Shown one piece after another: positions 1-62,379 of a stretch of 64,000 nt of DNA; position 1 is the first letter of the stretch; each line of letters opens with the position of its first letter. Both the position numbers and the translations under genes were made by a program. The DNA lies in IMG/VR virus record IMGVR_UViG_3300035181_003152. One strand, 5' to 3'. This DNA is from an uncultured virus (IMG/VR IMGVR_UViG_3300035181_003152) (taxonomy: Duplodnaviria; Heunggongvirae; Uroviricota; Caudoviricetes). A model generated the notes under the pieces. The model worked only from the letters and a program-made list of their open reading frames with translations. It was not told where the DNA came from and did no database searches.

Positions 1-1434
1 CTACAAGATCGAGGGCGAACTCGGACTCGACGCGATGCTGACGGCTGACCGACCTGCGAGTGCAGGCCTGTTCGCGTCCCCAGCGGGATTCGAACCCGCG
101 ACCGCGGCCACCGTGCTGCTCTCCGCCGTATCCACAACGCAGCTTTCGGCGCTCATCTGCACTTCGTCGCCCTCGGATCCATCCGCTTCGTCTCCACCTA
201 ACCCCGCGTTCCCTGGTCCATGGCCAGAAGTTTTGGCCAGAATATGCGGCGGCAGCGCCGGGAAAACTTCGCTGGCCGAGATCACGCCGTCGAGGTTCTC
301 GGCCTCGCGGATGTAGCCCTGCGTAGTTGAGAACGACGCGTGTCCGGCGCGCGCTTGGATGCGGAGGTGGTCGTCGCCGCGGATCGCCATCCATGTGATC
401 CCCGTCGCGCGGAGATCGTGGAAGGTGATCTGCTTGCGCGTCTTGTCGTTGGCGAAGAGCTCGGCACGCGTCACCCCCGCCCAGCGCAGGTACTGGCGCA
501 GCCGGTCGGAGAGGTCGCAGAGCGCCGGCATCGCGAGCAGGCGCCCGCGGCCCACCTCGTCGATCATTGCGCCGAGCAGCGGCGCGAACGTCGCCTCGAC
601 CGGGATGCGCCTGGCGTGCTTCGTCTTCGTCGCTTTCTCGGGGCCGCGGCCGGTCACCGCGCGGTTGATGCTGCGATGAATATGGATCGAGCCGCGTTCG
701 CGGTTGATGTCCTCGGTGCCCAGCGCCTCGAGCTCACCGGCGCGGGTGTACGTGTAGACGGCGGCGACGAAGAGGCGGGCCCACCGGAGGGGCGTGCGCG
801 GGCTGCTCACGAGCGCGAGGAATTCGCTCGGGTACAGGTACGCCTTGGCCTTCTTGGCGCCCTTGTCGGGGCCGGCAACGCCGTCGGTGGGGTTGTCGGC
901 GCGCACGCGGAGCGCGATCGTCTTCGACTGGCACGCATCGAAGAACATCTTGGTGATGTTCCCCCAGACGTTGGTGGCCGTCTTCCACGAGAGATCGTCC
1001 GCCTGGACGTGAGCGTCGAGGTCCTCGACGAGGGCCACGAGCTCGAGCTTGGTGACCTTCGCCATCGCGCGGCCGCGCAGCACCGGGATGACCCATTTGC
1101 CGAGGCGGCCGCGGTCGTGCCTGACCGAGGTGAGGCCGCGGGCCTCACGGGCGTCGCACCACCGCGAAATCCAGGCCTCGATCGTCTCCTCGGCGGGAGT
1201 GATTGGCGGCGCAGCGGCGATCTTCTTCGCCTCTTCGACGGCCCGCCCGATCGCGCGTTCCGTCATCGCCGCCGCAGTCTCGCGGGCGCGCGCCTCGGTG
1301 AGGCCCGCAGGGAGACAGCGCCGGACGCGCTTGCCGTTCGGTAGCGTCACGCGCGCGTCGAAGTGATCGCCGTGCTCGACGACGGAGCCCGTGCGCGGGC
1401 GGCCCGTGGGCTTCTTGGGGATGAGCGCGCTCAT
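1..1434 (-). CDS. int: Tyrosine recombinase/phage integrase
   Basis: Catalytic set present: YTYTRAGEL (R), TKTK (K), FHDLR (HxxR), AGH (H), TTQGY (Y). Confidence 0.95.
   Translation of the reverse strand: MSALIPKKPTGRPRTGSVVEHGDHFDARVTLPNGKRVRRCLPAGLTEARARETAAAMTERAIGRAVEEAKKIAAAPPITPAEETIEAWISRWCDAREARGLTSVRHDRGRLGKWVIPVLRGRAMAKVTKLELVALVEDLDAHVQADDLSWKTATNVWGNITKMFFDACQSKTIALRVRADNPTDGVAGPDKGAKKAKAYLYPSEFLALVSSPRTPLRWARLFVAAVYTYTRAGELEALGTEDINRERGSIHIHRSINRAVTGRGPEKATKTKHARRIPVEATFAPLLGAMIDEVGRGRLLAMPALCDLSDRLRQYLRWAGVTRAELFANDKTRKQITFHDLRATGITWMAIRGDDHLRIQARAGHASFSTTQGYIREAENLDGVISASEVFPALPPHILAKTSGHGPGNAGLGGDEADGSEGDEVQMSAESCVVDTAESSTVAAVAGSNPAGDANRPALAGRSAVSIASSPSSPSIL
74..100 (-). other. 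att core: 3' fragment of a tRNA (T-arm plus acceptor 3' strand, tRNA-Glu-like) inside the integrase ORF
   Basis: Minus strand CGCGGGTTCGAATCCCGCTGGGGACGC: T-stem GCGGG/CCCGC with TTCGAAT loop, then GGGGAC-G as in tRNA-Glu; no 5' tRNA half upstream. Confidence 0.8.
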
Positions 1435-6060: not shown

Positions 6061-6951
6061 TCAGAACGGCATGGCCTGCTCCCAGCGCTCCGGATCTCCG
6101 GTGACGTGGGCGACGGCGGCGTGGTCGAGGGCTTCGTCGAACTCCAGCACTTCGCACCCCGGCATCGCGGGGCCGACAACGCGCCAGATCTCATCGGTCG
6201 TCAGCGGCTTGGCAGCGACAGCCTCGTAGATGAGCTGTTCCAGCTTGAGCGCTCGCTCCCCAGCGGCCTTGTCAGCGGCCCGCTCCGCGCTCTCCTTGGC
6301 CGTGAGCCAGCGCGACGAGAACACCGCGGCGCGCATGTACGTGATGGGCTCGCGGTCCGCCGTGCGGTCCTCGCGCACCTCCAGCGCCGGCAGGCCTAGA
6401 GAGGTCACCTCGCGCGCCTGCCCGGAGAGACGAAGTCCACCGAAGATCTCCAGCTCGACGTCGCGCCAGGCCGCCTTGTCCTCGCTCGCCATCTCGACCG
6501 CCAGCTTGCGCGCCGCCTCGCACTCTTCGGCCAGCTCATGCGCGAGGGCCCGCACGCACGCGCGCAGGGCCAACGCCTCCTCGGCGTAGTTGAGCGGCGC
6601 GAAGGTGGCATCCTTGCTCCCGGCCAGCATCTCGATCAGCACGTCGCCCATCGGCGAGATCGTCACCTGCGCGCCCGCGCCGACGTAGTTGCGGCTGGCG
6701 TTGGACTCGACGTCACTGTTGCCGGTCCAGATGACGTCGGCGTCAGGCTCGCCCACATCGACGCTGGAGTGGCCGGCGCTAGCCAGCGGGCGGGCGATCT
6801 CGCCGATCTCCCAGACCCGCTTGAGCGCGGGCACCAAGACGCCGAGCTTGGTGCCCGCGTCCAGTCCGCTGTCCGCGTGGACGCGCGTCGTGTAGTGCGT
6901 CTGGAGCGAGCCCACGAGGTAGGTAATCTCGAACGTCTTTGAGTCCTTCAC
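6061..6951 (-). CDS. Hypothetical protein
   Basis: GTG start overlaps the TGA of the pentapeptide gene; typical codon usage. Confidence 0.7.
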   Translation of the reverse strand: MKDSKTFEITYLVGSLQTHYTTRVHADSGLDAGTKLGVLVPALKRVWEIGEIARPLASAGHSSVDVGEPDADVIWTGNSDVESNASRNYVGAGAQVTISPMGDVLIEMLAGSKDATFAPLNYAEEALALRACVRALAHELAEECEAARKLAVEMASEDKAAWRDVELEIFGGLRLSGQAREVTSLGLPALEVREDRTADREPITYMRAAVFSSRWLTAKESAERAADKAAGERALKLEQLIYEAVAAKPLTTDEIWRVVGPAMPGCEVLEFDEALDHAAVAHVTGDPERWEQAMPF

Positions 6952-7763
6952 GACGGCGCCCCCTGGACCGCGGGTGCGGCGGCAGGGATACGCTCCAAGC
7001 AGCATCCGCAGCCAGCAAGTCTCCAGCCGGGGATCGCGGGATCAGACACTCTCCGGCTCGCACCGTCGAGGCGCGCACCGACGAGGCGCGCACCGTCGAG
7101 GCTCGCACCGACGAGGCTCGCACCGTCGAGGCGCGCACCGTCGAGGCGCGCACCGACGAGGCGCGCACCGTCGAGGCTCGCACCGACGAGGCGCGCACCG
7201 TCGAGGCTCGCACCGTCGAGGCGCGCACCGTCGAGGCGCGCACCGTCGAGGCGCGCACCGTCGAGGCTCGCACCGACGAGGCGCGCACCGACGAGGCGCG
7301 CACCGTCGAGGCGCGCACCGACGAGGCGCGCACCGTCGAGGCTCGCACCGACGAGGCTCGCACCGTCGAGGCGCGCACCGTCGAGGCGCGCACCGACGAG
7401 GCGCGCACCGTCGAGGCTCGCACCGTCGAGGCGCGCACCGACGAGGCGCGCACCGACGAGGCTCGCACCGTCGAGGCTCGCACCGTCGAGGCGCGCACCG
7501 ACGAGGCGCGCATTCCGCTTCGCGTGAACAGGCCCGATCGCTCCCACGCTGATCAGCCAGTAGAAGAATGACGGATACGCCGTTGCCATCCAGAGCTGCG
7601 GCAAGAGGTCCCATTGCAGCCGGAGCGAACGTCGCGGGCCACGGCCTGCCTTGGCCCTCTCGTCGTCCTGTCCAGCCTTGATCGCATCGAAGAGATCGAG
7701 CCCATCGGCGCACGCGCCAAGCTTCACGATCGCTTTTCGGTTCAACAGAAGAATTGTTCTCAT
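6948..7763 (-). CDS. Pentapeptide repeat protein
   Basis: 30 tandem A[RS]L[DV]G units fitting the pentapeptide-repeat pattern; coupled to neighbours at both ends. Confidence 0.92.
   Translation of the reverse strand: MRTILLLNRKAIVKLGACADGLDLFDAIKAGQDDERAKAGRGPRRSLRLQWDLLPQLWMATAYPSFFYWLISVGAIGPVHAKRNARLVGARLDGASLDGASLVGARLVGARLDGASLDGARLVGARLDGARLDGASLVGASLDGARLVGARLDGARLVGARLVGASLDGARLDGARLDGARLDGASLDGARLVGASLDGARLVGARLDGARLDGASLVGASLDGARLVGARLDGASRRVSDPAIPGWRLAGCGCCLERIPAAAPAVQGAPS
7056..7511 (-). repeat. 15-bp tandem repeat, about 30 copies
   Basis: Unit GCG(C/A)GCCTCG(A/T)CGGT; only two variable positions. Confidence 0.97.
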
Positions 7764-29586: not shown

Positions 29587-30183
29587 ATGCACGACGTCCC
29601 GCGCTGCTCCGATCTCCTGTGGTACTTCGCCAGCGCCGAGTCCCGCGCGGGCGGCCTCATCTCCCAGCACGAGTCGTTCGCCTCGATGGTCGCCATCGGC
29701 CCCTCGAACATGCCGGCGCCGCAGAGCGCGGAGACCAAGCTGGGGACGCGGTTCGACCAGCGCGGCGGGGCTCCGTCGGACGCCGAGCGCGCGCGCTGCA
29801 TCTACCTCGCGCTGCAAAAGCTCACCCGCGAGCAGGTCGAAGTACTCGGCCGCGCGTACGGCGGCGAGGACCTGGGCCAGCTCGTGCTCAACGCGTACCC
29901 GGGCGATTTCCAGGCGCGCGACCGCTTGCGGCAGGCCTTCGGCGAGTACCTCGGCGTGGTGGCGTCGTGGCCGGAGGCGCGGCACGTGGCGCGTCCGTCG
30001 GGTGCCAAGGGCGCGTCCGTCGGGAACGTCGGTGAGATCCTCGCGCTCGCGGTGGCGCTGCTGAACAAGGCGCTGGCCGCGTACCAGGCCGCGGTGGCCG
30101 AGGTGCGCGACGAGCTCGCCGCCTACCAGCCGAGCGGGCGCGCAAAGGCGAGGACGGCGACGGAAATGGGGGCGACGTGGTGA
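29587..30183 (+). CDS. Hypothetical protein, possible late-gene regulator
   Basis: GAGAGG RBS; IYLALQKLTREQVEVLGRAY resembles a sigma-4/RinA-like helix; lies before the late genes. Confidence 0.55.
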   Translation: MHDVPRCSDLLWYFASAESRAGGLISQHESFASMVAIGPSNMPAPQSAETKLGTRFDQRGGAPSDAERARCIYLALQKLTREQVEVLGRAYGGEDLGQLVLNAYPGDFQARDRLRQAFGEYLGVVASWPEARHVARPSGAKGASVGNVGEILALAVALLNKALAAYQAAVAEVRDELAAYQPSGRAKARTATEMGATW

Positions 30184-30377
30184 CGCTGGGGAGCGCGACA
30201 CGCATGGCGTCCTTATTGGCGGTCGCCTTCGCCGACCACCTCAACAGCGCCGGGCACGACGAGCCGATCGTGCCGCCGTACGCGAGCGGACCCGGTCGGA
30301 TGCGGCGGATCACCGCCACGTCGCTGTCCGCGCTCGCGCCCTTCCCCGCCGTCAACATCATGGGGCTCGCCGTATGA
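30180..30377 (+). CDS. Small hypothetical protein
   Basis: Coupled at both ends. Confidence 0.5.
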   Translation: MTLGSATRMASLLAVAFADHLNSAGHDEPIVPPYASGPGRMRRITATSLSALAPFPAVNIMGLAV

Positions 30378-30796
30378 CCGCCGCCATCGACGAGCTGATC
30401 GACCTCCTCGAGGAATGCGGCGCGGTCATCACCTTCGACTCGCGCCGGTACGCCCGCGCGGCTCGGGCGTGGCCCGACTGCCTCCCGCCGATGTCCGGCG
30501 AGGCCGCGATCGCCGTCGAGCGCTGGGACCTGAACAGCTGGATGCAGTGGCAGGCGCGCTCGCCCGGCGCGTGGCCGTTGCCCATCGTCGCGAGCGGCGA
30601 CACCTTCGAGGCCCGCAACGCATCGGCAACGTGGGAGGAGGCCGAGAACCCCGAGACGGCGGCGCGGGCCGGCTTCCTGCGCGTCACCGTGGCCAGCGTC
30701 GCGGGCGAGTGCTTCCTCAGCGATACCGGCACGCGCTGGCCGATGAGCTGGATCAACAACCCGAACGTGCGCCGCGTGGTGGCCCCGTGCTCGTGA
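30374..30796 (+). CDS. Hypothetical protein
   Basis: ATGA-coupled. Confidence 0.6.
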   Translation: MTAAIDELIDLLEECGAVITFDSRRYARAARAWPDCLPPMSGEAAIAVERWDLNSWMQWQARSPGAWPLPIVASGDTFEARNASATWEEAENPETAARAGFLRVTVASVAGECFLSDTGTRWPMSWINNPNVRRVVAPCS

Positions 30797-31275
30797 GCAC
30801 CACCCCCGACGTCGTCGGCCTCGCCGCCATCACCGCGCGCCTGCGCGTCGGCAGCCGCAACACGGTCCGCCTGTACACGCTGCTCCCGCGCGACCCGCTC
30901 ACTCTTCACCGCTTTCTCCGCAAGGTATGGCAGCGCGGCCAGCACCTCGACGAGTGGCGCATCCGCCATGTCGACGGCCCGGCCGCGAAGCTCCCACGCC
31001 TCACCGGCTTGCGCCAGATCGGCGAGTTCGTCGGCCGCGGCGTCACCCCCGCGCAGCTCCTCGGCTGGTCGAAGCGCGAGCGCGACCCGCTGCCCCTGTT
31101 CACGGTGAGCGGCGACGTCGTCGCCTTCGAGAGCGCGCTGCGGGACTGGTGCTTTCGGCACGATGCCGTCCAGCGCTTCCCCGTTGCGGCAGCCGCCGAG
31201 GGGCGAATAGGCCGTCGCCTGGTCGAGCGTGCGAAATCAGCACGAAATCAAGCCACATCTTGCGCGGTCGAATAG
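30793..31275 (+). CDS. Tandem (double) Xis/AlpA-like winged-HTH protein
   Basis: Internal duplication: VGLAAI..RDPLTL..V..LDEW / TGLRQI..RDPLPL..V..LRDW. Confidence 0.65.
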   Translation: MSTTPDVVGLAAITARLRVGSRNTVRLYTLLPRDPLTLHRFLRKVWQRGQHLDEWRIRHVDGPAAKLPRLTGLRQIGEFVGRGVTPAQLLGWSKRERDPLPLFTVSGDVVAFESALRDWCFRHDAVQRFPVAAAAEGRIGRRLVERAKSARNQATSCAVE

Positions 31276-31281
31276 GCCGTC
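31204..31281 (+). promoter_or_regulatory. Nested direct repeats upstream of the late operon
   Basis: CGAATAGGCCGTC at 31204 and 31269 flank CGAAATCA at 31232 and 31243. Confidence 0.55.
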
Positions 31282-31486
31282 ACTTCGCGGAGAATCGGGC
31301 ATTCTTACTACGCTGCGCATCGCCTCCCATCCGAGGCACAGCGCACGACGGGCCCGCGTATCCCCCGCGGCCGGTCACCCGGGGTCGACCGTCCGGCCCA
31401 TCCGCTTCGCGCGGCACGAAGGCGCCCTTGATCCGGGCGTGCGGCGGTTTTCTCTTCGCGCCCACGCGGCGCAGTCAGGTCGATCC

Positions 31487-31696
31487 ATGCCTCACCAAAT
31501 CGGCGACATCCGGCGCGACTCGCGCGGCAATCACAGCGTGATCCGCGACATCCACGACGGCGAGGCGCACATCGCCAAGGCGACACCGCTGCCCGGCGGT
31601 GGCTTTGACCTCGTGCCAGAAAAAGAAGCGTCCCACGGCTGGCTGCCCCTCGCGCGGTACGCCGCCGAGAGCACGTTCGTCCGGCGCGCAGCCTGA
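31487..31696 (+). CDS. Small hypothetical protein
   Basis: ATG with AGGT upstream; typical codon usage. Confidence 0.6.
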   Translation: MPHQIGDIRRDSRGNHSVIRDIHDGEAHIAKATPLPGGGFDLVPEKEASHGWLPLARYAAESTFVRRAA

Positions 31697-31703
31697 TTCC
31701 CCC

Positions 31704-32057
31704 ATGACCCCTGCCATCATCGACGCCTGCGCCGAGGCCGCCCACGAGATCAACCGCGTCTACTGCGCCGCTCGCGGCCAGTACGTCGAGCCCGCGTGGG
31801 ACATCGCCGCTCCCGAGCACCGCGCGAGCCTGCGCAACGGCGTCCGCGGCGCTCTCGCCGGCAACACGCCTGAGCAGAGCCACACGAGCTGGACGACGGA
31901 GAAGATCGCCGCCGGCTGGACGTTCGGCGCCGTGAAGGCCCCCGAGGTGAAGACGCACCCCTGCCTCGTGCCCTACGCCGAGCTGCCGACGGCGCAGCGC
32001 GCGAAGGACACGCTCTTCCTCGCGACCGTTCGCGCCATGGCCGCCGCGCTGTCCTGA
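31704..32057 (+). CDS. Phage RyR-domain protein
   Basis: TPEQSHTSW..EKIAAGWTFGAVK....KTHPCLVPYAELP..QRAKD. Confidence 0.9.
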   Translation: MTPAIIDACAEAAHEINRVYCAARGQYVEPAWDIAAPEHRASLRNGVRGALAGNTPEQSHTSWTTEKIAAGWTFGAVKAPEVKTHPCLVPYAELPTAQRAKDTLFLATVRAMAAALS

Positions 32058-32062
32058 TCTCC

Positions 32063-32497
32063 ATGCCCCCCGCCCCGCCCACCGTCGCCGAGCAGGAGTC
32101 CGCGCTCGCGCGCCGCCTCTACGCCGCGTCCAGCCCCACCGTGAGCTGGCGCGACGCCGGCCCGGTCGTCCGCGCCACGTGGCTCGCGGTGGCCAAGGAG
32201 GCCTTCGTGGCCTTCGAGCAGGCGCCCGGCCTGCGCTACGCCCGGGGCAACGACTACGTCGCCCCGCCGGTCCACGTGCCCGCCGGCCCCGACGCGGACG
32301 GCTCGACGCGGACCTGGGTCGCCAGCCTGCGGGCCGTCGGCATGACGGTCGAGTGGGAAGGCGAGTCGCGGGCCGCGAAGAACGTGGCCGTGGCACACGT
32401 GGCGCGCAGCCGCAGGGCGATCCCTGGCGGACGCCACCTCAACGCCCCCGAGCTGCGCAAGCTGCGGCGCGCCGAGCTGCAGGGGGCCCAGGCGTGA
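32063..32497 (+). CDS. Hypothetical protein
   Basis: ORF within the operon. Confidence 0.6.
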   Translation: MPPAPPTVAEQESALARRLYAASSPTVSWRDAGPVVRATWLAVAKEAFVAFEQAPGLRYARGNDYVAPPVHVPAGPDADGSTRTWVASLRAVGMTVEWEGESRAAKNVAVAHVARSRRAIPGGRHLNAPELRKLRRAELQGAQA

Positions 32498-32949
32498 GCG
32501 CGCTCTTCGCCGAGCCCACCAACCGCTTCGCCGTTCGCCTCGATCCCGCCGCCGTCGATGCGCTCCACATCTTCGCTGCCGCCGCTCATCCCCTGGAGAC
32601 AGGTGGCGCGCTCGTCGGCTACTACGACGGCGACAAGCTCGCTGTGGTGACCGAGGTCCTCGGCCCGCCCGCGGACACCGTTCACGGTCCGCGCGCGCTG
32701 GTCCTCGGCGCCGACGGCCTCGCCGAGTACTTCGCCGCGATCTGGCCCGCGCGCCATCATCTCGGCGACTGGCACACCCACCCGGGCGAATCGCCGCCCA
32801 TCGCGAGCCCGACCGACCACGCGACGATGCGCGCCCACACGCTGGGCGACGCGGCGCTCTCGTGCATCCTCGGCGGTACGCCAGGCGCCTACGCGCTGAG
32901 CGTCACCGTCTACGAACGCGGCAACCCAGTCGCGCTGCGCGCCGCCTGA
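32494..32949 (+). CDS. Stand-alone JAB/MPN+ (Mov34, Prok-JAB) metallo-isopeptidase
   Basis: ETGGALVG ... LGDWHTHP....ASPTD is the intact JAMM motif E-xn-HxH-x7/8-S-x2-D. Confidence 0.9.
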   Translation: MSALFAEPTNRFAVRLDPAAVDALHIFAAAAHPLETGGALVGYYDGDKLAVVTEVLGPPADTVHGPRALVLGADGLAEYFAAIWPARHHLGDWHTHPGESPPIASPTDHATMRAHTLGDAALSCILGGTPGAYALSVTVYERGNPVALRAA

Positions 32950-32952
32950 GCC

Positions 32953-33051
32953 ATGCTCCCCCTCTCCCTCGCCGCTCTCGTGGCCCTCCTCGCCGCGCAA
33001 CCCCCGCCGCCCAGCGCCCGCCGCGTCGAGGACATCGCGCACACGCGCTGA
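32953..33051 (+). CDS. 32-aa hydrophobic peptide
   Basis: TGA-GCC-ATG junction; MLPLSLAALVALLAAQPPPP... Confidence 0.35.
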   Translation: MLPLSLAALVALLAAQPPPPSARRVEDIAHTR

Positions 33052-33124
33052 GCGGGCCTGATTTTCACCGTGCTGAGCGCGGCCCGTGGCGTCGCCGGCA
33101 AGCGGACGCGAGGATAGAGCATCC

Positions 33125-33340
33125 ATGTCCCAGATCATCGCGAAGTTCACGTGCACCTCGGTCACCAACTACGGCGGCTCCGATCGAGTCGAGTTCGCTG
33201 CCGCCGTGGGGCTGGGCAACGAAAGCTGGTCGAGCGCCACCCCCGGCGGCCAGCTCCAGATCACCATCTCCAATCCCGCCGCCCGCGGCAAGTTCGAGCC
33301 GGGCAAGAGCTACATGCTCACCATCGAGCCCGCGAGCTGA
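33125..33340 (+). CDS. Small conserved phage protein (AKFxC...ATPxGxLxIxIxNP...FEPGKxY family)
   Basis: Recognisable uncharacterised phage family pattern; GAGGA RBS. Confidence 0.75.
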   Translation: MSQIIAKFTCTSVTNYGGSDRVEFAAAVGLGNESWSSATPGGQLQITISNPAARGKFEPGKSYMLTIEPAS

Positions 33341-33397
33341 CGCGCTCGCCGCCTGCGCGCCGGTGGGTCATGGCCCACCGGCGCGCAGGCGCCCGCC

Positions 33398-34189
33398 ATG
33401 CCGCACCCCACCCGTCCCTGCCGCTGCGCCGTCGGCCGCCACACCGCCGCAGCCGACATCGACGCGGCGCTGGCCAGCGGCGACAGCCTCAACGTCATCT
33501 GCGCGCGGTGGCCCACCGGGTTCTCGCGGTCCGGCCTCGGCACGCACCGGCTCCGCTGCCTCGGCATCGGGGCCAAGGACACCGTCCAGGCGTCCAGCGG
33601 GACAACAGCCAGCGTCCACGCGTCCACGGACCCGGACGTCCTTGGACAGGACGACGCTGTCCCGCTGTCCACGCCGCCCCCGCGCAAGCGCCGCATCGGC
33701 GAGCTGCCGCCCGGCGCGCCGACGAAAGAACAGCGCGTCGTCCACATCATCAACCTGATGGCCCGCCTCGAGTGGGTCAGCGGCCAAACAGGCGGCGAGC
33801 TCGCCGAACTGTGGGGTATCCACCCCGGCACCGTCGAGCACGACGCCTGCGAAGCCAGCCGCGCTGTCCAGCGCCAGGTCGACCCCGGCGCCGTCCAGGC
33901 CACGGTGATGGCCGCACTCCACGAGGCGCTCGGCCTCGGCCTCGACTTCGCGCGCACCAAGGTCATCGACGGCCGCACCCGCGAGGGCGACCCCAAGGCG
34001 CTCAATAGCATCGCGCTGCTCGCCAAGAGCATGGCGGTGTTCGCGCCGGCGCCGGTGCGCGGCCCAGCGCTCGCCACGAACGAGCGCGAGATCACCGTCC
34101 ACTACCCCGAGGGCGTCCCCGCCCACGATGGATCTCCACCTCAACCTTCCCCAGGCACGGGCGCACCAAGTCCTCGTTCCACGCCGTAG
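33398..34189 (+). CDS. Putative terminase small subunit
   Basis: Immediately upstream of TerL; HTH-like ELAELWGIHPGTV. Confidence 0.6.
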   Translation: MPHPTRPCRCAVGRHTAAADIDAALASGDSLNVICARWPTGFSRSGLGTHRLRCLGIGAKDTVQASSGTTASVHASTDPDVLGQDDAVPLSTPPPRKRRIGELPPGAPTKEQRVVHIINLMARLEWVSGQTGGELAELWGIHPGTVEHDACEASRAVQRQVDPGAVQATVMAALHEALGLGLDFARTKVIDGRTREGDPKALNSIALLAKSMAVFAPAPVRGPALATNEREITVHYPEGVPAHDGSPPQPSPGTGAPSPRSTP

Positions 34190-35579
34190 CCTCACGCTTC
34201 CGTGGGGCCGCGGCGTCGGCAAGAGCTGGTTCCAGCGCAACGCCGGCTGGTACCTCCCGATCGCCCGCTGGGATGGTCGAGAGCGACCGACGATGGACGG
34301 CGGCTCGATCCGCGGCGTCCGCATCGTTCACCTGCAGCCGACGTTCAAGTCCTGCAAAGACGTCCACCGCAACGCGGTCCTCGAGGAGCTGGAAGGCCCC
34401 TACGCCACCTGGCGCTTCCTCGGCGCCAAGGTCGACCACACCTCGTTCTCGTTCGCCTTCCCCGGCGGCTCGACGATCCAGTGGTTCGGCGCGCGGCACG
34501 CCAACGCAGCTCGCGGCATCCGCTGCGACATCGTCACCGTCGACGAGGCCGACGACATCGACCCCGCGGTCCTCGACGCCATCGTCGGCCCGTGGTTCTC
34601 CGAGAACTGGTCGCTCAAGATTCTGCTCCTCGGCGGCACGCCTCGGCGTGGCCGCTACGGCCTGCTCCATCGCGAGCACAGGCGCGGGCTCGACGGCGAT
34701 GCCGCCCGCCTGCTCACGCCGAACGCGTCGGGGGAATTCTCGCTCGACCCCGCGGAGAACATCCGGCTCGACGAGCTGCGCCGCACGTACAGCTTCCACA
34801 GCACCTGGCGCGACGCCCCCAAGAACGTCGACGCTGCGCACGTCGCTCGCGAGCGCGCCCGCCTTGTCGCCGCCGGCCAGCTCGCCGTGTACGAGCGTGA
34901 GTGGGAGTGCAACTTTGACTCTGCCGAGGGGCTGGTTTACCCAGCCTACAGCGAGAAGGTCCACGTCAAGAAGGCGCCGCCGGGCACCAAGTTCAACGAA
35001 TTCCTCTTTGGCGTGGACCACGGCTGGGAGGACGCCGGCGTGATGCTGGCGATGGGCGTCGCCGGCTCTGGCGCCGACGCCACCGTCTACATCCTCGAGG
35101 ATGTCTACGAGTCGCACCAGCTCGAGAGCTGGTGGATCGCGCAGGCCAAGCGCCTCCGCGCCAAATACAGCTCCGCGCCACAGCGCTGGTACGGCGACCC
35201 CTCGCAGCCGGCCCGCCTCACCGCGATAGCTCGCGGGGCTGGCGTCGCCTGGTCGGACGTCGACAACGCCATCGAAGACGGCGTCTCGGCGGTGTGCGAG
35301 CTGCTCGCGGTGCGCAAAGTCCCCAACGAGGACCCGCGCGACGACAGCGACGAGCGCCAGATCGCCCGGCTCTACATCGACCCCTCGTGCGCGAAGACGC
35401 GCTGGGAATTCGTGAACTACCGCAGGAGGCGCGACCCGAACGACACGGACCGCTTCCTCGACGACATCGTCGACAAGAACAATCACGCGATGGACAGCGT
35501 GCGCTACCCGATCTTCAACAGGTTCGGGAAGGCGCAACCCAAGCGCGGCGTCGGCACAGCTTCCATCGGCATTTACTGA
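34128..35579 (+). CDS. terL: Terminase large subunit
   Basis: WGRGVGKS, VTVDEAD, GGTP, GVDHGWED, NNHAMDSVRY. Confidence 0.93.
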   Translation: MDLHLNLPQARAHQVLVPRRSLTLPWGRGVGKSWFQRNAGWYLPIARWDGRERPTMDGGSIRGVRIVHLQPTFKSCKDVHRNAVLEELEGPYATWRFLGAKVDHTSFSFAFPGGSTIQWFGARHANAARGIRCDIVTVDEADDIDPAVLDAIVGPWFSENWSLKILLLGGTPRRGRYGLLHREHRRGLDGDAARLLTPNASGEFSLDPAENIRLDELRRTYSFHSTWRDAPKNVDAAHVARERARLVAAGQLAVYEREWECNFDSAEGLVYPAYSEKVHVKKAPPGTKFNEFLFGVDHGWEDAGVMLAMGVAGSGADATVYILEDVYESHQLESWWIAQAKRLRAKYSSAPQRWYGDPSQPARLTAIARGAGVAWSDVDNAIEDGVSAVCELLAVRKVPNEDPRDDSDERQIARLYIDPSCAKTRWEFVNYRRRRDPNDTDRFLDDIVDKNNHAMDSVRYPIFNRFGKAQPKRGVGTASIGIY

Positions 35580-35594
35580 CTCCGCACCACGCAC

Positions 35595-37187
35595 TTGCTC
35601 CTCGACGTCCTCAGCGCTCAGCACCCCTCCTACACGCCCGCGGTGTGGGCGAAGTACGACGCGCTCTACCGCGGCGGCGAGGCGTTCCGCGCGTGCATTG
35701 ACGCGTTCCTGCCGCAGAATCCGCAGGAGCCGGCCACCGTCTACGCGGCCCGCAAGACGGAAGCCCCGTACACCGGGTACGTCGGCCCGATCTGCGACTG
35801 GTTCGCCGCCAAGCTCTTCTCCGCCTCGCTCGTCGTCCGCGCCACGAACGCGACCGGCGAGCACGTCGACGCCGACCCCTTCTACGCCGCGTGGAAAGAG
35901 GACGTCGACGGCGCCGGCACCGACCTCGTCGACTTCGTCCGCGCGAGCTTCACCAGCGCGCTCGTCAAGGGCCGCTCGTGGTGGTGCGTCGAGCTCCCCG
36001 ATGACGGCGAGGGCGAGCCGATCAACGCCGCGCACTGGAAAGCCCGTGGGCTCGGCGACGCCTACGTCTACAGCCTAGAGAACGAGCAGGTCCTCGACTT
36101 CGCCGTCGATGGTCGCGGTGAGCTCACCTGGGCCATCGTCGCCGACGTCGACACGCCGCGCGACCTCCCCACCGACAAGCGCAGCCGCATCGTCGAGACG
36201 TGGCGCGTCTACGACCGGACGAACGTCGAGACGTTCCGGATCTCCTACGACCCGGCGGTCAACGAGCAGCGGCCCACCAGCGCGCCGAGCATCGACAAGC
36301 GCCCGCACGGCTTTCAGCGCGTGCCCCTCGTGGCCCTCGGCTTCGTCGGCACCAAGGCGGTCAAGATCCGCGTCGGCGCGCGCACCGTCCTCGTGGGCGG
36401 CTCCAAGATGGAGGGCTTCTGGCTGCTGAGCCGGCTGGCCGATCCGCAGATCGCCCACTTCCGTAATTCAGCCGCCCTCGACTGGAACATCAAGCGCACC
36501 TGCTACGCGATGCCGGTGTTCGAGATCGGCGACGAGGACAAGCCGCCCGTCATGGGCGCCGGCTATTTCATCCAGCTCGCCCCAGGCGACAAGGCCAATT
36601 GGATTGGCCCGCCGACTCAGCATCTCGATGTGCTCGCCAAGCGCGTCGACAGCCTCAAGGACGAGATCTACCGCGTCGCCAACCAGATGGCGCAGGGCGT
36701 GAGCAACAACGCCGCCGCCATCGGGCGGAGCGGCGAGAGCAAGCAGGCCGACGCCAACAGCACCGAGGTGGTGCTCCGCGTCTACGGCGCCATCGCTCGC
36801 GAGGCCATCGAGCGCACGTACAGTCTGCTGGCCGAAGGGCGCGGCGATCCGGTCGGCTGGTCCATCGAGGGCTTCGACACCTTTTCGCTCAGCGACGCCA
36901 CGCAGGTGGTCGCCGCCGCGCTCGACGTCCAGGCGCTCGACGTCCCCTCGGCGACCTTCCGCCGCGAGCTCATGTACCGCGTGGCGGACGCCTTCCTCCC
37001 GAACGCGGACCAGGCCACCAAGGACGCCATCCGCAGCGAGATCGACTCTGGGGTGACCGACGAGGAGACGGCCGAGCCGCCGATGGTACCTGCCGAAGCG
37101 GACGAGCCGGAAGTCGACGACGAGCCGGAGCCGCCCGGCAGCCAGCGCGAGCCTGTTCTCCCTGACCTCACCACCACCAAGCCGTGA
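35595..37187 (+). CDS. Portal protein (DUF4055-like)
   Basis: Follows TerL; HPSY...LYRGG...FLP..P.E....YAARK, RSGESK. Confidence 0.85.
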   Translation: MLLDVLSAQHPSYTPAVWAKYDALYRGGEAFRACIDAFLPQNPQEPATVYAARKTEAPYTGYVGPICDWFAAKLFSASLVVRATNATGEHVDADPFYAAWKEDVDGAGTDLVDFVRASFTSALVKGRSWWCVELPDDGEGEPINAAHWKARGLGDAYVYSLENEQVLDFAVDGRGELTWAIVADVDTPRDLPTDKRSRIVETWRVYDRTNVETFRISYDPAVNEQRPTSAPSIDKRPHGFQRVPLVALGFVGTKAVKIRVGARTVLVGGSKMEGFWLLSRLADPQIAHFRNSAALDWNIKRTCYAMPVFEIGDEDKPPVMGAGYFIQLAPGDKANWIGPPTQHLDVLAKRVDSLKDEIYRVANQMAQGVSNNAAAIGRSGESKQADANSTEVVLRVYGAIAREAIERTYSLLAEGRGDPVGWSIEGFDTFSLSDATQVVAAALDVQALDVPSATFRRELMYRVADAFLPNADQATKDAIRSEIDSGVTDEETAEPPMVPAEADEPEVDDEPEPPGSQREPVLPDLTTTKP

Positions 37188-38032
37188 CCCCTCTTCGCCT
37201 CACCCCCTCGCCCGCCCAGCGCCGCCTCGCACGAGTCGGCCAGCGGGCGATGCTGGCGACCGAGGCCGCTGCGCTCGACGAGCTCCAGGCCGCCGCCCAG
37301 CGAGCGCTCCTGGACGTCGTCCAGGCCGCACAGCACGAACAGGACCCTCAGCGGGCACGCCTCCGCGCCCTCGCCGCTCTCCGCTCCGCGAGCGAGCGGC
37401 TCCGCGGCGACGTGGCCCGCGTCATCCTCGCCGGTCGCCACGGCGCCCGCGCCGACGCCGCCAAGCAGCTCGGCGCGGAGCTCGCCGCGGCCGCCCAGAC
37501 GCTCAAGGTCGCCATCAAAACGCCCGGCCCCGCCGACCGCGCCGACGATGAGCACCGCGCCGCAGCGGCCGCCGACAGTTACGTGGCCGCCTGGCGCGCC
37601 GGCGTAGCGGCCGCGCTCAGCAAGTGGCTGGCCGATGAGCAGCGCCCGCCGTTGGCCACCGCGCTCGGCACAGCGACCACGCAGCAAGATCACCGCCTCC
37701 GCCGCCTCGCCGCGACCGAGGTGCCGCAGGCCTACTCCGCGGAGCACGCCGCGCGCGCCGACCAGATCGCCGAGCAGCACCGCGGCGCCAAATGGCTCGT
37801 GCTGCTGGTCAAGGTCTGGGACGCCACGCTCGACAAGAAGCTGTGCGCCGTGTGCGCTGGCATGAATGGCCGCTGGGCTGTCGTCGGCCTCAAGTTCAAG
37901 GGCGGCTTACTCCCTGGCAGCGTGCACGCGCACTGCCGCTGTCAAAGCAGCCTGCTGGTGATGAAGCCCGGTGTCCTGATCCCCGGCTCCGCCTACCTCG
38001 GCGCCTCCGCTGGCCACGCCTTCGCGGCCTAA
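37184..38032 (+). CDS. Head morphogenesis protein (MuF/SPP1 gp7-like)
   Basis: RLAATE, KVWDATLD..CAVC, HAHCRC. Confidence 0.85.
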   Translation: MTPLRLTPSPAQRRLARVGQRAMLATEAAALDELQAAAQRALLDVVQAAQHEQDPQRARLRALAALRSASERLRGDVARVILAGRHGARADAAKQLGAELAAAAQTLKVAIKTPGPADRADDEHRAAAAADSYVAAWRAGVAAALSKWLADEQRPPLATALGTATTQQDHRLRRLAATEVPQAYSAEHAARADQIAEQHRGAKWLVLLVKVWDATLDKKLCAVCAGMNGRWAVVGLKFKGGLLPGSVHAHCRCQSSLLVMKPGVLIPGSAYLGASAGHAFAA

Positions 38033-43597: not shown

Positions 43598-45112
43598 ATG
43601 TCGCTTTTCGTCACCTCCAAGTCCAGCGCCACGCGCCACGGCGTCTTCGCCATCAAGGCCACGCCGCCGTCGCAGATTCGCGCGACTGGCACGTCACGCG
43701 TGGCGATCGTGGGCTCGTTCCCCTGGGGGCCGAAGGACACCTTGATGCAGCCGGCCAGCCTGGCCGAGCTCAAGCAGCTCGTCGCCCCGCGCGGCTTCAC
43801 GCGCACCGGGTACGCATACCTCGCGCTGCTCTGCATGGCGTTCCCCGACATCGTCGCGGTCCGCGCGCTGGGCTCGACGGCCAGCAAGGCGTCCAAGAGC
43901 ATCTCCGACGTGGTGCCCACGGCGATCATCACCGTCACGGCGAAGTACGAAGGCACGGGCATCAACAGCGCGGTGATCACCGTCGCTGCGGCCACCGACG
44001 GCAACGCCAACCACTTCAACCTTTCGGTGAGTATTTCCAGCGCGAGCGGCGATACCACTGACCTCTGCGAGAACGTCAACTACAGCGGCACCGGCGCCGA
44101 CAGCGTGTTCACGGCCGCCGATATCGCGCGCCTCCAGCTCATCGCGCCGCCCACCAAGCTCGCCGCGGGTCGCCCGCTCAACGGCACCTACGCCTTCACC
44201 ACCGCAGGCACCGACGGCACGATCAACGCGGCCGCGTACGTCGGCACGGCGGGCTCCGGCGACAAGGGCATCGCGATCCTCGAGACCGATCCCAACGTCC
44301 GCCACGTCTTCTGCGACTACCCCGGCTCAGGCGCGATCGCTGCCGTCGATGCTGGTCTGCTCGCCCATCAGGCCCTCATGGGCGACCGCTGCGTCTACGT
44401 CAACGGCGTCCCCGCGCAGTCGGCCAGCGCGGTCCAGGCTGACGTCGCGAGCTACCGCGGCGCCGGCGTCGCCTACGTCGACCCGTGGGCGTACGTGTAC
44501 GACGACACCACGCAGGCCGAGCAGCTCGTGCCGCCGGCTGTCTTCGCGGCCGGGCTTGCGGCTCAGCTCGCGCCGTCCACCAGCATCGCGTGGAAGGCCG
44601 CCGAAGTGCAGCGCGCGCTGGGCGCCATCGTCCGCCTCGAGACGCCGCGCGGGATGGCCGCCGCGACCAATTCCGCGCTCGGTATCACCACGCTCGTCGC
44701 CGGCCCCAAGGGCGGCTTCGTCTTCGAGGCCTCGCCGAACACGATCAGCGTCACCGACCCGACGCAGGCCGAGCTGACGACTACGCGAATGGACCAGTAC
44801 ATCGCGGAGAGCTTCGTCACGAGCGTCTACGGCCGCGTCGACGCGCCAAACGTCGCGAGCAACCGCGACGATCTCGCGATGGCGCTTGAGGGCTTCATGT
44901 CGACGCTCAAGGCCAACGCGGGCCGCGACCCCGACCACAACGTCCACGTCATCAACTACCAGATCCTGCCGCTGGACAGCGCCAATACGCCGCAAGACTT
45001 CGCCGCGGGCGACGTGTCGATCCCGCTCAGCGTCCAGTACTCGAACGGCATGAAGCGGATTTTCTTGATCCTCAAGAGCGGAACCGCGCCGCTCACCGTC
45101 ACGGCGCAGTGA
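43598..45112 (+). CDS. Contractile tail sheath protein
   Basis: GVF....PP..I...GT...AIVG.FPWGP, YVDPW, VPPA.FAAG. Confidence 0.9.
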   Translation: MSLFVTSKSSATRHGVFAIKATPPSQIRATGTSRVAIVGSFPWGPKDTLMQPASLAELKQLVAPRGFTRTGYAYLALLCMAFPDIVAVRALGSTASKASKSISDVVPTAIITVTAKYEGTGINSAVITVAAATDGNANHFNLSVSISSASGDTTDLCENVNYSGTGADSVFTAADIARLQLIAPPTKLAAGRPLNGTYAFTTAGTDGTINAAAYVGTAGSGDKGIAILETDPNVRHVFCDYPGSGAIAAVDAGLLAHQALMGDRCVYVNGVPAQSASAVQADVASYRGAGVAYVDPWAYVYDDTTQAEQLVPPAVFAAGLAAQLAPSTSIAWKAAEVQRALGAIVRLETPRGMAAATNSALGITTLVAGPKGGFVFEASPNTISVTDPTQAELTTTRMDQYIAESFVTSVYGRVDAPNVASNRDDLAMALEGFMSTLKANAGRDPDHNVHVINYQILPLDSANTPQDFAAGDVSIPLSVQYSNGMKRIFLILKSGTAPLTVTAQ

Positions 45113-60181: not shown

Positions 60182-60532
60182 ATGAAAGCCCAGTACCTCT
60201 CCGCATTTCGCCGCTTCGCCGATGGCGCCGTGCTGGCCATGTTCGGCCTCGACGATCGCGGCGCGCTCCGCACGGCCAGCGAACCGTGGAGTGGGCTGGA
60301 GACCGTGGACCTCAGCTCGGCCGACGCCGTCTACACGTCGGCCACCGGCTGGCCGAGGAGCATCCGCGCCACCGCGGCCGGCAACGTCAAGGTGGACTGT
60401 CTCAAGGGCGATGGCACCGCGCAAACCGGCCTGGTCATCGCGGTGACCGACTTCGAGAACCTGCCGCTTAGCCACGTCACCAAGATCTGGAAGGTGGGCA
60501 CGACGGCCACCGGCCTGTTCGTGGGCTTCTGA
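60182..60532 (+). CDS. Hypothetical virion-associated protein
   Basis: PRSI....AGNVKV...LPL..VTKIW..GTTATGL. Confidence 0.65.
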   Translation: MKAQYLSAFRRFADGAVLAMFGLDDRGALRTASEPWSGLETVDLSSADAVYTSATGWPRSIRATAAGNVKVDCLKGDGTAQTGLVIAVTDFENLPLSHVTKIWKVGTTATGLFVGF

Positions 60533-62379
60533 TGATCGGCGTAGGTATTGGACCGGGGTTTGGCGCACGGCGGGCGGCTGTCCCCGGCCTGCGTCTCGAC
60601 TTCGGCTCGGCGGCGAGCTCGTACTCCGGCCTCGTGGCGACGACGACGGGCAGCGTGTACCTCCAGGCGGCCGGCGTCCCTGTCCTCGCGACGGGCGCCA
60701 CCAACCCGCTCTGGGAGGACCTCGGCGGCAACGAGGGCGGCGGCGTCCACGTCTTTTCGAGCACCGTCAACGCCGCGCCGAGCCCGATCGACTTTCGCAC
60801 GTCGGCAGGCTGGACGAACAGCGGCGGTATCGCGATCACCAACGCGGCTGTCCTCGGGCCCGATGGGCTGACGATGGCGCAGAGCGTGGCCGACACCGTG
60901 ACCAACGATGAGTCGCAGGTGCTCTATCTGTTCCCGGGCGGCGCTCAGGGACAGTACGCCTCGTGCTGGATCAAAGACGATGCGTCGAATCCGCCCAACG
61001 ACTTCTTTTCGCTGCAAAAGGGCAACTACACCGGCATCCACCAGCCGCACTACGCCGGATGGACGCGCGTCACGAACTACGACGTGGCCGGCTCGGCCAC
61101 GTACACCGGCTTTGCGCCGTCGGGTACGACGTCAGTCAACGGCGCGACCCTTACCGGCCTCGGCGCGACGTGCGTGTGGGGTTTCCAATCCGTCGTTGGG
61201 CCGCTGTCGCCGCCGCTGATTTCGAGCGGCACCGCGGCTGCCGCAAAGACGCTCGACGCGTCCGCGTGCGCAAAGGCCATCGACAAGAACGGCGCGCTGG
61301 ATTTCCAGGTCACCGTGGCCCCCGGAGCGGGCGACCGTTCGGGCTCGCAAGGCGTCAACCTCGACCTCGGCGACCTCCAGGTGGTGCCGAGCTACTTCCT
61401 CTGGTCGTTCACCACGACGGACGGGCGCTCCTCGCTCCGGTACATGCAGGGCACGGGCGGCGCGCCCGGGTTCTACACGCTCGAGGTCCGCGGCGTCGAC
61501 GTCGGCAGCACGCCGACGAACGGACACACCGGCATTTTCGGCAGCGGACAAGCCATCACCCTGCGGTGCTGGTACAACCCCGCCACGACGAGCGCTGGTA
61601 TCCGCGTGAGCGTCAACGGCTGCTACATGTCGGACGTGGCGATTACGGCGTCTGGCACAGCGCTCGTGCGGCCCTCGACGATCTACCTCGGCACCAACGG
61701 AGGCTCATCCACGGCAGCGATGGTCGGTCGTTTCACGAAGTCGCCGACGCGCACGCTGCTCGCGGGCGCCGCGCCCGAGTTCCTGTTTCTCGGCGACTCC
61801 ATCATGGGCGACCTCGGCGTGACGTACATGCCGGTCGGCTCGTGGATCTACACCGCAGCCGAGATGGGCACGCGCCCCGGGATTGGCTCGCTCGCGGTCT
61901 CCGGCAACACGGTTCAAAACCAGCTTAACTTCTTCAACGCGTCGGCGTGGAAGACGGCGGCGGTCAAGGCCGTGGTGGTCCAGGTCGGCATCAACGACAT
62001 CAACACCGGCGCTACGGCGGCAGCGACGATTGCCAGCCTTCAAGCGCTGGCCACCGCGATCAAGACGGCCATTCCGCTGGCGAAGGTCGTGCTCTGTCAG
62101 CTGCTCCCCTGCTCGACGTTTCTGACGAACACGTTTGGCGCGGCCTATCAAACGAAGTGGGTCGCGGTCAACGACGCTATCGCCGGTCGCGGGGGCACGC
62201 CGATCACGGGCGTCGACTACCGCGCTCTGACGGGCGACGTCGGCAGCACGCTCAACGACGGAGCCAACAACATCCCGACTGGGTATCGTCTCGCCGATGG
62301 CCTGCACACCAACACCAACGGCCGGGTCGCCAACGCGGTATACGCCCGCGCGGGGCTGCACTCGCTCGGCCTCATCTGA
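60532..62379 (+). CDS. Fibre/spike protein with C-terminal SGNH/GDSL esterase
   Basis: Blocks FLGDS, VSGN, VGIND, DGLH. Confidence 0.85.
   Translation: MIGVGIGPGFGARRAAVPGLRLDFGSAASSYSGLVATTTGSVYLQAAGVPVLATGATNPLWEDLGGNEGGGVHVFSSTVNAAPSPIDFRTSAGWTNSGGIAITNAAVLGPDGLTMAQSVADTVTNDESQVLYLFPGGAQGQYASCWIKDDASNPPNDFFSLQKGNYTGIHQPHYAGWTRVTNYDVAGSATYTGFAPSGTTSVNGATLTGLGATCVWGFQSVVGPLSPPLISSGTAAAAKTLDASACAKAIDKNGALDFQVTVAPGAGDRSGSQGVNLDLGDLQVVPSYFLWSFTTTDGRSSLRYMQGTGGAPGFYTLEVRGVDVGSTPTNGHTGIFGSGQAITLRCWYNPATTSAGIRVSVNGCYMSDVAITASGTALVRPSTIYLGTNGGSSTAAMVGRFTKSPTRTLLAGAAPEFLFLGDSIMGDLGVTYMPVGSWIYTAAEMGTRPGIGSLAVSGNTVQNQLNFFNASAWKTAAVKAVVVQVGINDINTGATAAATIASLQALATAIKTAIPLAKVVLCQLLPCSTFLTNTFGAAYQTKWVAVNDAIAGRGGTPITGVDYRALTGDVGSTLNDGANNIPTGYRLADGLHTNTNGRVANAVYARAGLHSLGLI

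Follow-up and report, generated by a model that had tools for sequence, protein, structure and literature searches.

A stand-alone JAB protein related to the Cap3 isopeptidases of type II CBASS lies upstream of the terminase genes of a myovirus-type prophage and is a candidate counter-defence enzyme

The stretch of DNA analysed here (the window; 64,000 nucleotides of the uncultured virus record IMGVR_UViG_3300035181_003152) is 70% GC and holds a myovirus-type prophage of a Polyangiaceae-type lineage, the host of which is myxobacterium-like. It has replication and helicase genes and a rightward array encoding the large terminase subunit (TerL), the portal, a MuF-like protein, a scaffold and the major capsid protein. 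Three genes upstream of TerL stands a small gene encoding a JAB/MPN-domain protein, the subject of this report. The relevant features are given below, where L001 denotes a viral contig nearly identical to the window in this region and L023 a prophage copy in a Byssovorax MAG.

1-1434, minus strand: integrase (Pfam/PHROG annotation)
31599-32057, plus strand: RyR-domain protein, 152 aa as listed, true start possibly later (PF02026, 3.1e-12; phrog_5154, 1.2e-33)
32063-32497, plus strand: 144-aa ORF of no known family
32494-32949, plus strand: stand-alone JAB/JAMM (Cap3-like) metallopeptidase, P0001, 151 aa (Pfam, PADLOC, NCBIfam, AF2, Foldseek)
32840-33045: stretch deleted in close relatives and flanked by a pair of short, imperfect direct repeats (from blastn and an alignment with L001)
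32953-33051, plus strand: 32-codon ORF directly 3′ of the JAB stop codon, read from the sequence
33125-33340, plus strand: small beta protein of 71 aa, the listed ORF having 84 aa and beginning at 33086 (phrog_6978, 1.7e-7)
33398-34189, plus strand: 263-aa ORF in the small-terminase (TerS) position, assigned by position only
34128-35579, plus strand: terminase large subunit (phrog_2, 1.9e-25)
35595-37187, plus strand: portal protein (phrog_145, 5.4e-41; PF13264)
37184-38032, plus strand: MuF-like head morphogenesis protein (PF04233, 2e-4, below cut-off; several head-morphogenesis PHROGs)
43598-45112: tail sheath, a contractile-tail marker

The 144-aa ORF immediately 5′ of the JAB gene gave no Pfam, PHROG, NCBIfam or PADLOC match and no confident predicted fold; it has one homologue, at 79% identity, and is mostly not conserved in L023, where only residues 69-102 are retained. 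The RyR-domain protein, encoded two genes 5′ of the JAB, is absent from L023, as is the 71-aa ORF, a member of a widespread family of viral proteins predicted to have a TOBE/OB-like fold (Atlas structures). The 32-codon ORF encodes a peptide that begins with hydrophobic residues, contains the run PPPP and ends in charged residues; L023 has a comparable peptide after its JAB. No family match was obtained for the 263-aa ORF in Pfam or PHROG, and a promoter and terminator scan of positions 30000-34500 returned nothing exceeding shuffled controls.

Three further observations concern the prophage outside this cluster. Beside the integrase end, positions 61-100 carry a tRNA 3′-arm-like sequence (..GGGATTCGAACCC..) that may be a partial copy of att marking the border of the prophage; ARAGORN detected no tRNA in the window. 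A real gene (approximately 30790-31275, plus strand) is hidden within the listed ORF 30415-31275: by eye, the C-terminal ~160 aa of this ORF closely resemble L023 ORF 5481-5954, while ORF 30374-30796, in a different frame, covers part of its N-terminal portion. Finally, a 615-aa late protein (60532-62379, plus strand) ends in a GDSL lipase/acylhydrolase domain (PF13472, E 1.7e-12) and may be a tail-fibre-associated esterase.

The JAB reading frame opens with a GTG codon that overlaps the stop codon of the 144-aa ORF (GTGA), an arrangement that suggests translational coupling. Its GC content by codon position (0.76/0.55/0.88) is the coding pattern of the 70%-GC window. Among 5.8 billion proteins, eight homologues were detected, and six homologues, of 151-153 aa, have the start site in common with it. 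The product matched Pfam Prok-JAB (PF14464; E 4.2e-10, 39.9 bits, cut-off 25), the sole Pfam family at E<=0.01, with no match to RadC. All nine aligned sequences, down to 30% identity, keep the catalytic residues E35, H94, H96, S105 and D108. The canonical JAMM motif reads E...HxHx7SxxD, with a spacer of 7 residues between HxH and SxxD, whereas the window JAB has a spacer of 8 (HTHPGESPPIASPTD), one residue more. An AlphaFold2 model built on 43 sequences adopted the MPN fold with high confidence (pLDDT 96.3, pTM 0.90). These results confirm that 32494-32949 is a real gene for a single-domain JAB with all catalytic residues, and bear out the preliminary description of this DNA, made from the letters and the open reading frames, which had reported an intact JAMM motif in a 151-aa single-domain protein upstream of the terminase.

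Profile and structure searches agreed on the closest characterised relatives of this protein, namely the Cap3 isopeptidases of type II CBASS. The best PADLOC models were PDLC00890 (3.3e-21, 73 bits) and PDLC00889 (5.6e-18, 63 bits), which give 150-175 bits on Cap3 proteins encoded behind SAVED-nuclease, CD-NTase and Cap2 genes. In NCBIfam, the top match was to the JAB part of the 6A-MBL cap2_3 family, a Cap2-Cap3 fusion (2.7e-20), followed by TIGR02256 (6.9e-9) and Cap3 NF050170 (1.5e-4); all three fell short of their curated cut-offs (22 versus 200 bits for NF050170 and 35.7 versus 127.6 for TIGR02256). Foldseek searches of the PDB placed first 9ild_A, 'Complex structure of Cap3 and CD-NTase' (E 1.6e-10, TM 0.86/0.86, rmsd 2.0), which was also the best PDB match by sequence. 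Rpn11-type JABs came next (TM <=0.73). In total, 196 PDB chains matched at E<=0.001 and, among the matches listed, all were JAB/MPN proteins. Viral models in BFVD reached a TM of no more than 0.68 against the JAB fold throughout.

Two other types of JAB protein fitted less well. Lambda gpK, in which a JAB domain is fused to NlpC/P60, belongs to the tail tip, whereas the window phage has a contractile sheath and offers neither an NlpC fusion nor a tail-tip context. BLASTP against lambda K gave E 0.22, covering the motif only, no PHROG matched at E<=0.01, and the scanned ORFs contained no NlpC domain. The earlier statement that the context is not that of the gpK type was therefore upheld, and the protein itself is not gpK-like. 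The Mec+/CysO-type JABs of sulfur-carrier cysteine synthesis have a Prok-JAB domain of similar size. However, they differ in context: the second and only other JAB in the Byssovorax MAG is of this type and lies in a ThiF, PALP, JAB, ATP-sulfurylase operon, such as the window lacks, and it forms a very long outgroup branch in the rooted tree described below.

In bacterial genomes, relatives of the window JAB are found predominantly in CBASS operons. When 1.84 billion representatives were searched with a nine-sequence JAB profile, 3841 proteins matched at E<=0.001, most of them 155-185 aa long. A search of 185,579 species genomes confirmed 353 relatives, the best 80 of which were analysed; the usual locus consisted of SAVED-endonuclease, CD-NTase, Cap2 (E1-E2) and JAB genes, that is, type II CBASS. 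Among these best 80 of the 353, 76 had Cap2, 65 a cyclase and 60 an effector, with the full set in 58. Cap2 was missing from four loci, namely the prophage copy L023, L028 (with ORF sizes and order as in CBASS loci, yet no profile match), L079 (where the JAB match lies 96 bases from a contig end) and L085. Metagenome relatives, the best of which is 47% identical, gave a similar picture: nearly all were CBASS operons, Cap2 lay upstream in 62 of 80, and 17 of the 18 loci without it had fewer than 700 bases upstream of the match. The sole metagenome relative with 7 kb upstream and no Cap2, cyclase or effector profile match was contig L126, a further candidate orphan JAB judging by its gene content; BLAST with TerL and portal sets found no match on it.

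Two features of these operons were noted in passing. In two loci (L026:3482-7486 and L043, Hymenobacter), Cap2 and Cap3 genes follow a gene for a DUF1508 protein, without a CD-NTase, and are accompanied by divergent genes for Peptidase_M78 (a weak PADLOC capP match) and an HTH regulator; these pairs may represent a system that conjugates another cargo. Secondly, the CD-NTases of loci L024-L090 (alignment A3) share a strongly conserved C-terminal tail, ...GGF(T/S)xR...G(G)RF(A/G), presumably the element recognised by Cap2 and Cap3, which would be useful in substrate design.

No such partners accompany the JAB of the window. Pfam searches of 65 window ORFs gave no match to ThiF, E2, SMODS or NlpC, and a six-frame search of the 64-kb window with Cap2, CD-NTase and SAVED effector profiles, built in this analysis from the relatives' CBASS loci, returned nothing below E 1. 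The original observation that no E1, E2, ubiquitin-like (Ubl) or NlpC partner is recognisable thus holds for the 64-kb window, about 29 kb of the source contig falling outside it; a 50-base pattern from the right window end had no match in viral or metagenome contigs. The neighbouring ORFs were also considered as Ubl partners and rejected: the 71-aa ORF is TOBE/OB-like rather than beta-grasp, and no fold could be predicted with confidence for the 144-aa ORF, which has a single homologue. Likewise, when window proteins were screened for a CD-NTase-like ...RF(A/G) C-terminus that might mark a decoy or substrate, one doubtful ORF (6943-7527) was the only one found.

A stand-alone JAB at the same place occurs in L023, the prophage of a MAG recorded as Byssovorax sp. 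(Polyangiaceae), where it lies 5′ of a TerS-like ORF and TerL and is 83% identical to that of the window. Identities between the two prophages were 86% for the helicase, 68% for TerL, 62% for the TerS-position ORF and 29% for the portal, so that the JAB is better conserved than terminase and portal. Its dN/dS against L023 was 0.27, as compared with 0.25 for the helicase, 0.37 for TerL and 0.54 for TerS; judged from these substitution ratios, the JAB is under purifying selection. The L023 TerL (L023:7910-10543) carries an intein (PF14890, E 2.9e-10), which the window TerL lacks. In the Byssovorax MAG (10.8 Mb, completeness not established) there was no match to SMODS/CD-NTase or Cap2, a result that does not show absence from the host. 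Another Polyangiaceae MAG, L084, carries the CBASS subtype of the JAB's relatives, so a target exists in the host family.

Despite this conservation, close relatives of the window carry a broken gene. L001, a viral contig 98.8% identical to the window over the region, has a deletion of 206-207 bp that takes out JAB residues 118-151, comprising the last three strands of the fold, together with the 32-codon ORF. Contigs from runs X2, X3 and X4 likewise join position 32839 to 33046, so that the JAB is broken in three of the four runs that contain the region; these three runs represent three studies, all from 2020, which may be one campaign and hence possibly a single lineage. The intact form was seen in run X1 only, possibly the window's own source. 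Since the JAB is truncated in L001 and in the X2-X4 contigs, the gene is dispensable, and such a presence/absence polymorphism fits an accessory rather than a structural gene.

Stand-alone JABs are also encoded in the head modules of other phages. We collected 22 viral loci including L001, and annotated 18 after setting aside L001 and the near-duplicates L013, L020 and L022. A large terminase PHROG lay within ~3.3 kb of the JAB in 16 of the 18 contigs, and in 12 the JAB stood directly between TerL and the portal. Elsewhere, it lay directly upstream of TerL (L009), near connector and ejection PHROGs only (L019) or on a contig with no head genes (L021). The only match among 50,697 phage records showed the order TerL, portal, DD-carboxypeptidase, JAB, one hypothetical protein, MuF; a search with two queries for isolated phages carrying the head-module JAB gave no match. 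These proteins (L002-L019; MW202482) resemble that of the window in being small orphans, 28-42% identical to it, that adjoin terminase, portal or MuF genes, and their best PADLOC matches are again CBASS JAB models (58-88 bits). However, they have the canonical 7-residue spacer and usually lie between TerL and the portal, whereas the window JAB is upstream of TerS. As far as our literature searches reached, this lineage is undescribed. In three high-GC viral contigs (L004:6312-6983, L005:6228-6983 and L008:6351-6932), an HslV/proteasome-beta-like peptidase gene (phrog_1040, E ~1e-19; no Pfam match) lies right after the JAB and just before the portal; inspection by eye showed similar ORFs in L010, L011, L012 and L015.

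The relationship between these groups was examined by phylogeny. In a quick tree of 104 rows, from which three loci had been left out for a mismatch to the motif pattern, the window clade appeared nested within the Cap3 proteins; this placement was discarded, as a constrained tree holding the window clade and 15 viral JABs together was better by 30.6 log-likelihood units. Dropping 31 rows, which were near-duplicates, came from short contigs or, in two cases, formed very long branches, left a more careful tree of 73 rows. It resolved 54 operon Cap3 proteins (89/69), the window clade with its 8 members (99/97) and, as a third group, 11 viral JABs of head modules (98/96). Rooting with three outgroups, namely the Mec+-type JAB from L107, L021 and P0009, all of them long branches, gave a tree of 76 rows in which the window clade (100/99) was sister to the 54 operon Cap3 proteins (93/77), the two being joined at 95/87, and the viral head-module lineages lay outside both. 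Forcing all phage JABs into one clade cost 25.6 log-likelihood units, which the AU test does not reject (p-AU 0.127). On these trees, the window clade is probably the nearest outside relative of the sampled Cap3 subfamily, sister to it rather than nested within it. The comparison with Cap3 proposed in the preliminary description therefore came out in favour of kinship (95/87), but with the window clade outside the operon Cap3 proteins and with a single phage-JAB clade still acceptable at p-AU 0.127.

Set beside Cap3 itself, the window JAB shares a single MPN/JAMM domain of ~150-180 aa and the E...HxH...S..D motif. In contrast to Cap3, it has no adjacent Cap2, CD-NTase or effector gene and sits in a prophage by terminase genes; moreover, its clade stands on a long stem branch (1.18), is without the CPEP loop that most relatives possess and carries an additional residue in the loop at the metal site. 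These last three features suggest that the substrate of the window clade may have changed.

Since distant JABs are fixed in the head modules of other phages, they hint at a virion-related or morphogenetic role, which we keep open as the main rival reading although we consider it rather unlikely here. The protein would then be a processing peptidase that trims a C-terminal extension or tag from a head or packaging protein, or would itself be capsid-internal. The recurrent proximity to TerL and portal in the viral contigs, the TerL, portal and MuF setting of the single match in phage records, the HslV-like gene that follows the JAB in L004, L005 and L008, the window JAB's own position beside packaging genes and the admissible single clade of phage JABs would all be in keeping with such a role. 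Against it, the best tree joins the window clade to CBASS Cap3 proteins, apart from the head-module lineages, and truncation in near-identical relatives from several data sets is unexpected for an essential assembly factor. Moreover, L023 retains neither the RyR protein nor the 71-aa ORF and little of the 144-aa ORF, no Ubl-like protein or tagged substrate was found beside the JAB, and a CD-NTase-like tail occurs on no window ORF apart from the doubtful one.

It is improbable, in our judgement, that the JAB is a passenger or decaying gene, or one acting outside defence and assembly, for example on some host protein. The truncated alleles in L001 and three of the four runs, the missing partner genes and the lack of a detected CBASS in the one host MAG searched would be as expected of a passenger, but a dN/dS of 0.27, catalytic residues invariant in nine of nine sequences down to 30% identity and conservation exceeding that of terminase and portal between window and L023 are not. 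We attach a similarly small likelihood to a deconjugase directed at another E1/E2 defence (Bil, with its Ubl on tail proteins, a 6A-MBL-type system or a cyclase-less Cap2/Cap3 operon) that would free phage or host targets of the conjugated protein. Such a role would accord with the 6A-MBL cap2_3 fusion as top NCBIfam match (2.7e-20), with the DUF1508 pairs of L026 and L043 among close relatives and with the speculation of Hor et al. (10.1101/2023.09.04.556158) that phage DUB domains could counter Bil, but not with a best structural match that is a CD-NTase-bound Cap3 rather than a Ubl-bound JAB, or with the absence of Ubl, E1 and E2 from the window.

The reading that we prefer, tentatively and at a little under an even chance, is that the window JAB would be an accessory counter-defence enzyme, an active Zn-dependent isopeptidase de-conjugating the primed CD-NTase of type II CBASS. 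In this system, Cap2 primes the cyclase by joining the CD-NTase C-terminus to targets, and Cap3 reverses the ligation. The preprint by Ledvina et al. reports that CD-NTase conjugates are removed and CBASS protection is counteracted when Cap3 is in excess; on that account, CBASS de-priming would be the most economical function for a Cap3-like protein supplied by a phage. The data fit a gene that may derive from Cap3 or share a recent ancestor with it, and that appears to be kept active by selection yet easily lost. The preliminary description had proposed a deconjugase stripping either CD-NTase or Ubl conjugates. The first half of that proposal is in line with Cap3 as the nearest relative, whereas the second gained no specific support, there being no beta-grasp partner and the best fold match being CD-NTase-bound Cap3.

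As we infer its activity, substrate, timing and effect, the phage-supplied JAB would cleave CD-NTase conjugates, which would keep the cyclase unprimed and lower second-messenger output; the lowered CBASS signal would let the phage finish its cycle. As the gene stands at the start of the packaging and head operon, two timings suggest themselves, both speculative: the protein might be made late alongside capsid proteins, or be loaded in the capsid and delivered with the DNA. Late expression, which the first account of this locus had assumed, is a speculation from gene position. Several results count against counter-defence, namely the scores below the Cap3 cut-offs, a sister rather than nested position in the trees, the Byssovorax MAG without a CBASS match and the gene broken in relatives. 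In addition, Ledvina et al. report that Cap3 acts very specifically on the tail of its own CD-NTase, so that the range of any counter-defence would be limited.

More broadly, we raise as a possibility, and with more doubt than confidence, that phages took over the host's own 'off switch' for type II CBASS, in the form of a stand-alone Cap3-like isopeptidase that would be made with the head, perhaps packaged, and would de-prime the cyclase. Of the anti-CBASS proteins found in the literature searched, Vs.4 and Acb4 are described as nucleotide sponges acting on the cyclic-nucleotide signal (PMC10449767; PMC11722364); the abstract of a report on a further phage-encoded CBASS antagonist states no mechanism (10.1101/2022.03.30.486325), and the speculation of Hor et al. 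concerns DUB domains of tail assembly proteins. We found no paper on stand-alone phage Cap3 homologues in the literature searched, which mostly leaves subscription journals outside its coverage, so earlier publication is possible. If true, the proposal would make this protein the first anti-CBASS factor to target conjugation instead of the nucleotide signal, and a clean example of a virus borrowing the negative regulator of a defence system. The orphan JABs between terminase and portal of many uncultured phages would then be the same kind of weapon, giving a candidate function to a recurrent but unannotated gene of phage head modules.
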